From IMG/VR virus record IMGVR_UViG_3300005686_000008: a stretch of DNA of 64,000 nucleotides. One strand, written 5' to 3'. A program made the position numbers and the translations under genes. The first letter of the stretch is position 1, and each line of letters begins with the position of its first letter. The notes under the pieces are model-generated. The model saw nothing but the letters and a program-made list of their open reading frames with translations, was not told where the DNA came from and did not search any database. This DNA is from a virus (lineage: Duplodnaviria; Caudoviricetes). Positions 2,157 through 3,983 of the stretch are shown in pieces.

Positions 2157-2987
2157 ATGAATAACAATGTTCTTGTAATTGGTAATGGCTATTTGGGGAA
2201 TAAGGTTGCAGAATATTTTGATTGCTACTTATTCGAAGAAAAATTGTGTACGCAGGCTGAGGCTGATTTTTGTATTAAGGTATGGAAGCCTAAGTTTGTA
2301 ATCAACTGCGCTGGTAAAACTGGAAGACCAAATATTGATTGGTGCGAAGTCCATAAAGAAGAGACATTCTTCGGTAATGTTATTCTTCCTACTTATATTC
2401 AATCAGCATGTAATAAATTTGGCGCAAAAATGGTTCATGTCGGTAGCGGATGTATCTATCAGGGAAACTATGATGGAAATGGGTTTACAGAAGATGCTGC
2501 TCCAAATCATGACTCAAGTTACTATAGTTGGACAAAGATAGTTTCAGAAAGATACTTGAATGGTCACGATGTTTTGCAACTTAGAATTAGAATGCCGCTT
2601 AGTTCTGATAGGAGTCCAAGGAATCTTCTTTCAAAGCTTCTTGGATACAGCATGGTTGTAGACGCTCCAAATTCAATAACTTATATTCCTGATCTTTTGG
2701 AGGTTATGAGGTCTCTTATTTCAATGAACGCTTCTGGTATTTACAATGTTGTTAATCCAGACCCGATATTGCATAGTGAAATACTTAAGAAGTATGAACA
2801 GATAAGCGGTAAAACGTTATCTTATAAGACAATAACAGCAGATGATTTGGATTCTATTACTTTGGCAAAAAGGTCTAACTGTGTTCTATCAATAAAGAAA
2901 TTGAATGCTCTTGGTCTACAAATGAGACCGTCAAGTTATGCTGTTGATGATTGTATTAGAAAATATGTTGAAGGAGGCAATGTATGA
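2157..2987 (+). CDS. NDP-4-keto-6-deoxyglucose 3,5-epimerase/4-reductase (NRS/ER-like SDR)
   Basis: GNGYLG Rossmann motif; GKTGRPNIDWCE, GSGCIY, YSWTK and LRIRMP motifs typical of the NRS/ER family. Confidence 0.8.
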   Translation: MNNNVLVIGNGYLGNKVAEYFDCYLFEEKLCTQAEADFCIKVWKPKFVINCAGKTGRPNIDWCEVHKEETFFGNVILPTYIQSACNKFGAKMVHVGSGCIYQGNYDGNGFTEDAAPNHDSSYYSWTKIVSERYLNGHDVLQLRIRMPLSSDRSPRNLLSKLLGYSMVVDAPNSITYIPDLLEVMRSLISMNASGIYNVVNPDPILHSEILKKYEQISGKTLSYKTITADDLDSITLAKRSNCVLSIKKLNALGLQMRPSSYAVDDCIRKYVEGGNV

Positions 2988-3091
2988 AAGGAGTAATTCT
3001 TGCAGGAGGAACTGGGTCTAGACTTTTTCCAATTACGAAGGTTACGAACTGTATTTTATTTATTGTTTTGTCGATAGATATAGTATGCTAA
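2984..3091 (+). pseudogene. Stranded 5' remnant of rmlA ([22 protein letters not shown], then unrelated sequence to a stop)
   Basis: ATG at 2984 overlaps the upstream stop (ATGA) and has a GGAGG RBS. The first 22 codons (2984-3049) are a canonical RmlA N-terminus. Not in the ORF track (35 aa). Confidence 0.9.
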
Positions 3092-3983
3092 AGAAATTAG
3101 ATATATTAGATTCTGAAATAAGAAGATTGTATTTTGTTGAAAAGAAATCTCAAAAAGCCATATCGAAAGAGCTTGGGGTTTCGCAGTGGACTGTTTTTCA
3201 AAGAATGAAAAACTCCAATATGAAAGCATTTCCCAAAGAAAGATTTCTTAGTCATCAGGTTTATTGTATTAAGCAAGATGTTTTAGATTGTATTACTACT
3301 GATGTAGCTTGGATTCTTGGGTGGTTTCTCTCTGATGGTTTTGTATCTAAAGATGCAAATTATTTTGGATGTAAAGTTGCAATAAAAGATCAATCCATAT
3401 TAGAGAAAATTAAAGACTTTTTTGGATATTCTGGTCCAATTCTTGAACAAAACTCTTATCTAAAGAAAACAAAGAAAATCTATAAAAACAAATTGCTTAA
3501 AATGTCTTCTAAAGTATTGCGAAATAAGATTATTGAGCTGGGTATAAAGCCAGCAAAAACTAGCAAAGAAAGATATTTGAAATGTATTAACGGAGAAGAA
3601 TTGGATAGGGCTTTTATTAGAGGAATATTTGAAGGGGATGGCAGTCTTCTTGTTTATCCGCATAGGGAATCTTATTGTTTTCAGATTGTTGGTACAAAAG
3701 AATTGTTGCTTGAAATACAAAAAAGACTGATTGGATATCTTGGAATTCAAAAAACAAAGTTGTATTGTCAAAATGAAAAATCAAATCATTATATGATGAG
3801 ATATACTGGTAAGCATCAGGTTTATAAAATATCTGAATGGATATATCGTGATAATCCAAAAAATAGACTTGAAAGAAAATACTTGAAATATCAAGAAATG
3901 GAGGCAATATGTCAGTGAAGAAGGGTGTTCTATTGGCTGGCGGTACAGGTTCTCGTCTTGGCCCTCTTTGTAAAGTAACGAAT
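3050..3983 (+). mobile_element. Homing endonuclease insertion carrying a recoded replacement 5' end of rmlA
   Basis: Bounded by two copies of the ..KVTN segment (ending at 3049 and 3983). Deleting 3050-3983 restores a continuous rmlA. Confidence 0.75.
3085..3918 (+). CDS. Free-standing LAGLIDADG homing endonuclease with N-terminal HTH
   Basis: HTH-like SQKAISKELGVSQWTV; two LAGLIDADG motifs, WILGWFLSDG and AFIRGIFEGDG; C-terminal LERKY. Confidence 0.9.
   Translation: MLKKLDILDSEIRRLYFVEKKSQKAISKELGVSQWTVFQRMKNSNMKAFPKERFLSHQVYCIKQDVLDCITTDVAWILGWFLSDGFVSKDANYFGCKVAIKDQSILEKIKDFFGYSGPILEQNSYLKKTKKIYKNKLLKMSSKVLRNKIIELGIKPAKTSKERYLKCINGEELDRAFIRGIFEGDGSLLVYPHRESYCFQIVGTKELLLEIQKRLIGYLGIQKTKLYCQNEKSNHYMMRYTGKHQVYKISEWIYRDNPKNRLERKYLKYQEMEAICQ

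Follow-up and report, generated by a model that had tools for sequence, protein, structure and literature searches.

Introduction

Gene hybrids associated with mobile open reading frames (mORFs) have been described from fungal mitochondria, in atp6 of Allomyces macrogynus and in atp6, atp9, cox2 and nad3 of Glomus sp. (PMC3630166), and partial duplications of cob and atp6 have been found beside endonuclease open reading frames (ORFs) (PMC6279837). The native gene ends in Glomus are 91-98% identical to those of the sister species, compared with 64-81% for the inserted ends (PMC3630166). Among phages, the free-standing endonucleases SegB, SegF, SegG and MobE of the T-even group are known for intronless homing (PMC2988022, PMC2330249, PMC2790892), and a 2010 review of T4 mentions neither a duplication nor LAGLIDADG (PMC2988022). 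Phage genes can also be split by an endonuclease gene, as with mobE in nrdA of Aeromonas phage Aeh1, mobA in gene 39/60 of T4 and a seg gene in gene 43 of phage 25 (PMC2988022). Here we analyse a stretch of 64,000 nucleotides (nt), hereafter the window, that is part of the 370-kb IMG/VR virus record IMGVR_UViG_3300005686_000008 (Duplodnaviria; Caudoviricetes), and in which the gene rmlA is interrupted by a cassette consisting of a LAGLIDADG homing endonuclease gene and a second version of the rmlA start. We consider it very probable that this is a mobile homing-endonuclease cassette, which invades the coding sequence of phage rmlA with neither an intron nor an intein.

The rmlA cassette works like an mORF hybrid, but is a variant of that class rather than a strict member of it. 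As in the fungal hybrids, where the endonuclease is mostly of the LAGLIDADG type, an endonuclease ORF lies within a coding sequence and is accompanied by a substitute for one end of the gene, the native end stays alongside as an orphan, neither an intron nor an intein is involved, and the native end is nearer to a close relative than the inserted end is (89% versus 64% in the phage rmlA). The mORF hybrids, however, replace the 3' (C-terminal) end of mitochondrial genes, whereas the rmlA cassette replaces the 5' end of a phage gene, and must therefore bring a ribosome-binding site (RBS) and a start codon, which are hidden in the last codons of the endonuclease. Unlike the orphans of the mORF hybrids, moreover, the rmlA orphan is predicted to be still translated from its old, coupled start. 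The first-pass annotation of this DNA had named gene-end replacement by some fungal mitochondrial homing endonucleases as an analogue, a parallel that holds except for the end that is replaced. With SegB, SegF, SegG and MobE the locus has in common a phage endonuclease gene packed between ORFs without a splicing element, which presumably spreads by cutting an endonuclease-free allele and being copied with its flanks; those endonucleases, however, lie between genes, have no gene-end duplicate and belong to the GIY-YIG and HNH families. The split genes likewise hold a free-standing endonuclease inside a conserved enzyme gene without splicing, but both halves of Aeh1 nrdA, T4 39/60 and phage 25 gene 43 are functional and reassemble as proteins, whereas the upstream piece of rmlA is discarded and replaced. 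Gene-end replacement itself is known from fungal mitochondria, and what is new here is the 5' end, the phage setting, the LAGLIDADG enzyme and the family-wide association with rmlA. Our full-text literature search returned no published phage case of gene-start replacement by an endonuclease cassette, although its coverage of subscription papers was incomplete and it is no proof of novelty.

An uninterrupted rmlA allele and the boundaries of the cassette

The rmlA N-terminus is encoded twice around the LAGLIDADG gene, at the positions where the first-pass annotation had noticed it. Copy 1 (2984-3049; all features of the window given with coordinates here are on the + strand) comprises the resident rmlA start and codons 2-22, and is recognized by Pfam as NTP_transferase (E 4e-6). 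Its ATG overlaps the stop codon of the upstream rmlD-like gene (ATGA, 2984-2987), and beyond codon 22 its frame continues through 13 unrelated codons to a TAA (3089-3091), confirming that copy 1 is coupled to the upstream gene and dead-ends. The resulting stub ORF of 35 codons (2984-3091), which is called as a 35-amino-acid gene in the ENA and Logan assemblies, overlaps with its TAA the ATG of the endonuclease gene (ATGCTAA, 3085-3091). Copy 2, the replacement 5' end borne by the cassette, encodes MSVK plus 21 codons (3909-3983, with the aligned repeat at 3921-3983) and continues into the resident rmlA body from codon 23 onward (3984-4634). Copy 2 and the body together form the working rmlA (3909-4634), a glucose-1-phosphate thymidylyltransferase-type nucleoside triphosphate (NTP) transferase gene of 241 amino acids. 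The rebuilt RmlA matches Pfam NTP_transferase over profile positions 1-241 of 245 (E 1.7e-52), has the GGxGxRL and K..LLP motifs, and contains the columns that are invariant in an 8-sequence RmlA alignment, which it shares by definition as a member of that alignment; full-length RmlA would be made from the substitute 5' end in frame with the resident body. The cassette as a whole (3050-3983, 934 bp) consists of a spacer, the endonuclease gene and the replacement rmlA 5' end, and its insertion point falls precisely at the boundary of codons 22 (N) and 23 (K) in the resident rmlA, within the conserved segment GGxGxRL...KVTN|KHLLP. The 35-nt spacer at its left end (3050-3084) can be partly aligned with the spacers 5' of the endonuclease in three related loci, L017, L011 and L012 (TGTAT.., GTCGATA..).

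The empty site is preserved in L102, a metagenome contig of 1005 nt, which was found by scanning metagenome contigs with the rmlD-like protein; the same protein scan of viral contigs returned no relative, and an alignment-based rmlA scan succeeded. The 3' part of the L102 rmlD is 95% identical in amino acids to that of the window (residues 166-276), and 293 of 330 nt of the upstream flank are identical (89%). L102 is without an endonuclease: the rmlD stop and the rmlA start overlap, as they do in the window, but rmlA continues without interruption, with the counterpart of copy 1 joined directly to KHLLP, which is the arrangement predicted by the first-pass annotation for an endonuclease-free relative. 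Copy 1 agrees with codons 1-22 of L102 in 22 of 22 amino acids and 59 of 66 nt, and all seven differences are synonymous, so that the stub must have been a working gene start until recently. Copy 2 agrees with the same codons in 42 of 66 nt. The DNA homology between the window and L102 stops exactly at 3049/3050, and identity of about 90% resumes at approximately codons 19-23 of the copy-2 gene. Codons 21-90 of the window rmlA are 80-100% identical to L102 in nucleotides per 10-codon block, and 100% identical in amino acids; over the resident body, most 10-codon blocks are 80-100% identical in nucleotides and four are lower (63-70%), in line with the 89% of the upstream flank. As the window rmlA is approximately 90% identical to L102 from codon 23, only its 5' end is foreign. 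Two phage sequences of approximately 89% nucleotide identity consequently differ by the presence or absence of a cassette at one precise site. By this comparison the stub and the gene body are resident DNA and the foreign DNA extends from 3050 to about 3983, which establishes the insertion boundaries, the native origin of stub and body and the foreign origin of copy 2, for a layout that recurs in other loci (see below).

Copy 2 was imported rather than duplicated in place

The two copies share 17 of 21 residues, with the same codon used in 3 of the 17, and our recount agrees with the 14 differing codons reported earlier. In nucleotides, 38 of 63 match in the 21-codon repeat (25 of 63 differ, or 26 of 66 aligned nt), and almost all of the differences are synonymous. 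Counted by codon, the differences between copy 1 and copy 2 comprise 14 synonymous and 5 non-synonymous ones in the window, 16 and 3 in L017, 15 and 3 in L066, and 8 and 7 in L014. In a local duplicate undergoing decay, most differences from copy 2 would be expected to be non-synonymous, and simulations of neutral decay by random substitution gave so few amino acid changes without a stop codon in 0 of 4,000 trials. The predominance of synonymous differences therefore indicates that each copy functioned as a gene start while it evolved, in a genome separate from that of the other. Between the stubs of the window and L017 there are 13 synonymous and 3 non-synonymous codon differences, in genomes whose flanking proteins are 58-66% identical; such differences are incompatible with a shared pseudogene since the split of the two lineages, which were therefore most likely invaded separately. 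Copy 2 of the window shares MSVKKG..LCKVTN with the cassette of L017, and the MSVKKG and LCKVTN common to both cassette ends fit co-inheritance of copy 2 with the endonuclease. The earlier description of copy 2 as a recoded replacement N-terminus is borne out in that copy 2 is foreign, with its 42 of 66 nt in common with L102, but selection for recoding is not needed, since separate descent suffices. The codon divergence of the copies is approximately that of saturated synonymous sites, and a long period of separate evolution of the cassette 5' end is a sufficient explanation of the apparent recoding.

The same GGAGGCAAT precedes both rmlA starts (2973-2981 and 3900-3908), and the second RBS, that of the rebuilt rmlA, does lie with its start inside the last codons of the endonuclease, as had been reported; the endonuclease ORF overlaps the ATG at 3909 with its last 10 nt. 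As evidence we set the shared GGAGGCAAT aside, since beyond GGAGG it amounts to a 4-nt coincidence. Directly before the rmlA start, other loci of the family likewise have a purine-rich, GGAG-like run, situated in the 3' end of the endonuclease gene. The start of the rebuilt gene could be the ATG at 3909 (4 nt past GGAGG) or the GTG at 3915 (10 nt past), and the former is favoured because L017 has ATG TCA GTA at the same place.

The endonuclease

The gene at 3085-3918 encodes a free-standing, single-chain LAGLIDADG homing endonuclease of 277 amino acids, as judged from Pfam, its motifs and its predicted fold, and its start has no Shine-Dalgarno sequence of its own. The protein matches Pfam PF14528 (LAGLIDADG_3) with 39.1 bits against a cut-off of 22.5 (E 9.3e-10), and PDB profiles 4efj and 4z1x (E 3e-4). 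Residues 2-44 form an N-terminal helix-turn-helix that is Sigma70_r4-like by Pfam. Among 12 homologues of 38-56% identity, D84 is nearly invariant and G85 invariant in motif 1 (ILGWFLSDG), and E183, G184, D185 and G186 are all invariant in motif 2 (IRGIFEGDGS). The AlphaFold2 model (predicted local distance difference test score, pLDDT, 90.9) contains two alpha-beta-beta-alpha-beta-beta-alpha repeats, and the top Foldseek matches, with a probability of 1.00, were the bI3 maturase, I-AniI, I-Tsp061I, I-DmoI and the I-OnuI family, WhiA being matched as well. The window enzyme has in common with these endonucleases (PDB 1p8k, 2ab5, 2dch, 1b24) the two-domain fold and both acidic motifs; it is 13-21% identical to them, has an extra N-terminal helix-turn-helix of approximately 45 residues, and is free-standing, whereas I-AniI, the bI3 maturase, I-Tsp061I, I-DmoI and the I-OnuI family are borne by introns or inteins. 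From sequence and model together, the product looks like an intact single-chain LAGLIDADG enzyme.

Association with rmlA and phylogeny

Among the further loci of the endonuclease family with readable flanks, 12 of 12 adjoin an rmlA-type gene, and in 11 of the 12 the endonuclease lies directly upstream, its 3' end overlapping or touching the rmlA start, with L013 being divergent. The full architecture of a stub at the native start, the endonuclease and a complete gene is present in L017, a syntenic relative with an endonuclease 67% identical to that of the window, as well as in L014 and L066, and the full stubs in these three loci end at codon 22(-24). A remnant of approximately 15-20 nt of the ..PLTKVTN codons stands just upstream of the endonuclease in L011, L012, L013 and L099, and the longest ORFs of L096 and of the protein P0010 begin with MKGIILAG and MALKGVILVG. 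In all, at least 9 loci, the window included, have an rmlA 5' remnant upstream of the endonuclease. In the genomes with full stubs, the stub resembles the genome's own gene, down to the rare ..AVN in L066 and GGLG in L014, which fits invasion of resident alleles. The consensus PLTKVTN at the junction is found in 0 of 8 endonuclease-linked copies 2 and in approximately one third of the endonuclease-free alleles, a rough count over non-independent loci that is suggestive only.

Some of these loci have arrangements of their own. In L096 (810-1820) and P0010, the longest ORF runs from rmlA's own start through the decayed stub into the endonuclease, and the L096 stub may pass codon 22 (..YPFGKIPDNSHYPF versus ..YPLTKITNKHLLP). 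In L013 (2227-3822), an intact rmlA runs leftward from 2955, and 5 nt further on, on the opposite strand, a ..PLTKVKN* remnant is followed by the endonuclease running rightward, which suggests inversion or relocation of a unit made up of remnant plus endonuclease. L012 (6134-6813) has a second, different homing-endonuclease-type gene (LAGLIDADG_2 plus HNH_repeat by Pfam) 1.6 kb downstream of the rmlA cassette.

The endonuclease is present in only 2 of 80 viral rmlA loci. Its carriers are scattered over the RmlA tree, each beside endonuclease-free neighbours, a distribution that requires 8 changes, of which well-supported branches make at least 6 unavoidable. In the endonuclease tree the window and L017 group with L011, L012 and L066, apart from L014, and this tree rejects the grouping of the RmlA tree (log-likelihood difference 58.8, approximately unbiased (AU) test p 0.0006). 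The patchy distribution and the conflict between the trees both speak for mobility. When identity is broken down by gene and by thirds of RmlA, the window is about equidistant from L017, L002, L005 and L016 (57-73%), too evenly for a mosaic to show, whereas the comparison with L102 shows one.

Several observations weigh against a mobile cassette of this kind. The group used in the AU test was named after the trees had been seen. The tree of the flanking genes leaves the window, L017 and the endonuclease-free L002 as an unresolved trio, and since topology alone does not distinguish a single gain from a double one, one gain followed by one loss would also be possible. Over the 12 bp to each side, the copy-2 junction and the empty site of L102 differ at only 2-3 positions, all of the wobble type, so that resistance of the carrier allele to the enzyme is not evident from the sequence; such resistance may come from codons 15-18, which are more diverged, or from contacts made by the helix-turn-helix. 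The end points of the remnants vary, that of L066 running 5 nt further and that of L096 possibly to about codon 28. The endonuclease-free L016 and L005, with about 70% RmlA identity to the window, have copy-2-like N-termini (18 of 21 residues, versus 15-16 of 21 for copy 1). The first-pass annotation had expected endonuclease-free relatives to resemble copy 1 and not copy 2, which is the case for L102, the closest of them, but not for these two more distant loci. The copy-2 allele class does exist without an endonuclease, either through loss or as the source lineage.

In both L016 (2250-2350) and L005 (4960-5080), which are syntenic relatives, rmlA follows right after rmlD, and its product has an N-terminal extension of 3-6 residues and reads ..GSRLGxL(C/T)RVTN. 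L005 is a viral contig of 187 kb, in which rmlB, the rmlD-like gene and rmlA (2500-5720) are each split into 2-3 overlapping ORFs by frameshifts, with intact neighbours; the frameshifts could be due to error-prone assembly or to a decaying pathway. In L002, a gene of 475 amino acids (5719-7146), whose product is methyltransferase-like in its C-terminal half, separates rmlA from the glycosyltransferase gene; the window, L017 and L005 lack it.

Alternative explanations

The cassette, once inserted in the way proposed here, might have become a relic, in which the endonuclease has lost its activity or been domesticated, for example into a DNA-binding regulator like WhiA, and the arrangement would simply be inherited; we judge this improbable. 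Homing endonuclease genes commonly decay after fixation, and such a history would agree with the decayed stubs that are all that several related loci retain, with the presence of the cassette on every contig of the phage, without polymorphism within a sample, and with the Foldseek match to WhiA. The ORF, however, is intact, the conservation of its catalytic motifs in the 12 homologues points to purifying selection, and the insertion must be recent because the stub has no non-synonymous change relative to L102. Considerably less probable is an ordinary free-standing gene between rmlD and rmlA that spreads by intronless homing with co-conversion of its flanks and forms no propagating unit with the stub, which would have arisen from a single imprecise repair. 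In favour of such a gene, L015, L097 and L098 have an endonuclease upstream of rmlA without a clear stub, and cleavage of a gene nearby is common among free-standing phage endonucleases (PMC2988022). Against it, at least 8 diverged loci have stubs or remnants that end at the same point, the full stubs of the window, L017, L014 and L066 are lineage-specific, each like its own genome's gene, and the foreign DNA in the comparison with L102 ends at codon 22, with no longer co-conversion tract.

A group I or group II intron that carries the endonuclease gene and splices 3049 to 3984, leaving copy 2 irrelevant, is very unlikely. LAGLIDADG genes are typically intron-borne, and the insertion does fall exactly between two codons; however, our permissive Rfam scan of 2700-4300 (E<=10) matched no intron family and gave chance-level matches to unrelated small RNAs, the putative 5' splice site is preceded by C instead of U, and there is no room for a ribozyme core, because the endonuclease ATG follows the stub after only 35 nt and the stop codon of the endonuclease ORF overlaps the start of rmlA. 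To an intron, moreover, a complete in-frame second N-terminus with an RBS of its own would be superfluous, and yet it is kept in all related loci. An intein was rejected, as the endonuclease frame differs from those of stub and rmlA, with stops between them, and no Hint or intein family was found in the Pfam scan. The earlier claim that the element sits inside the gene with neither intron nor intein therefore holds, the endonuclease being a separate ORF in another frame. The two similar 22-codon segments 0.9 kb apart might also be taken for the outcome of a tandem duplication in situ at the rmlA 5' end, or for an assembly artefact, unrelated to the endonuclease in either case, which is scarcely credible: independent assemblies all show the same structure, differences that are almost all synonymous cannot result from the neutral decay of a local duplicate, and it is copy 1, not copy 2, that matches the close relative L102. 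The decay simulations and the comparison with L102 together refute this explanation.

Proposed mechanism and significance

For a mobile cassette that invades rmlA, we propose that the enzyme would cut endonuclease-free rmlA alleles near the codon 22/23 boundary, around ..GTTACNAAY|AARCAYTTGC..., and that repair of the break from a cassette-bearing genome would copy the cassette in, with the stub as the left and the gene body as the right homology arm. Each invasion would refresh the stub with the recipient's own sequence, and the divergence of copy 2 would lower both re-cleavage and the recombination between stub and copy 2 that would delete the cassette. The stub ORF may in addition deliver ribosomes to the endonuclease start: the overlaps ATGCTAA in the window and ATGA in L014 suggest termination-reinitiation feeding that start, a feature that is not general, as L017 and L066 have no overlap between stub and endonuclease. 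On balance, and with limited assurance, we favour the broader proposal that these loci represent a lineage of LAGLIDADG cassettes that is actively spreading and has specialised, in many large phages not related to one another, on the region of rmlA for the nucleotide-binding loop. This would amount to a general third way, beside introns and inteins, of residing inside the genes of prokaryotic viruses, namely by replacement of the 5' gene end, with the stub serving as left homology arm and translational leader.

The natural empty-site allele indicates that a homing endonuclease can occupy a protein-coding phage gene without splicing, at the cost of a 22-codon orphan, which widens the places in which such elements can be searched for. 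It also accounts for a class of features in phage annotations, namely short 'hypothetical' ORFs and gene starts present in duplicate, by which gene calling and pangenome clustering can be misled. As the enzyme motif that it would recognise is conserved and its candidate target well defined, the endonuclease family lends itself readily to biochemical characterisation as a new meganuclease specificity. The parallel with the mORFs of fungal mitochondria suggests convergent solutions in very different genomes, and a natural empty site together with a dozen related loci makes this an unusually clean, testable case.

Locus layout and neighbouring genes

Positions 1-6136 of the window form a block of tightly packed sugar-nucleotide and glycosyltransferase genes on the + strand. 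According to the ORF list and Pfam, a glycosyltransferase gene is followed by an RmlB-type 4,6-dehydratase gene (1196-2155), the rmlD-like reductase gene (2157-2987; RmlD_sub_bind plus Epimerase, with its stop codon at 2985-2987 overlapping the old rmlA start) and, after the interrupted rmlA, a family-2 glycosyltransferase gene (4635-5660); rmlD, stub, endonuclease, rmlA and the next gene make up an unbroken chain of overlapping or abutting ORFs. A promoter and terminator scan of 1000-6300 gave nothing above shuffle background and is uninformative on separate transcription, and blastn of 2100-4700 against the phage collection gave no match. The same phage, of roughly 0.5 Mb, is represented in bioreactor sludge by contigs that reach about 505 kb. 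Contigs of three sequencing runs, as well as 20 contigs from assemblies of JGI, ENA and Logan, have the identical layout. Across the contigs of four runs, three runs, which possibly stem from the source sample, show the cassette-bearing form only, and no joint skipping the cassette was found; the freshwater run yielded a few short fragments, one of them a 176-nt piece nearly identical to part of the endonuclease gene.

A similar layout surrounds a second, unrelated endonuclease-like gene elsewhere in the window (45870-46600). Near 45870, a 21-codon ORF (MIPIDEIKGIL...) starts on the stop codon of an upstream gene of 1180 amino acids, and is followed by a cysteine-rich, HNH-like ORF (45942-46580), inside the 3' end of which lies the ATG of the next gene (46567, MTPIEWIGFF...). 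The two gene starts around the HNH-like ORF share only M-PI--I, so that the duplication is weak.

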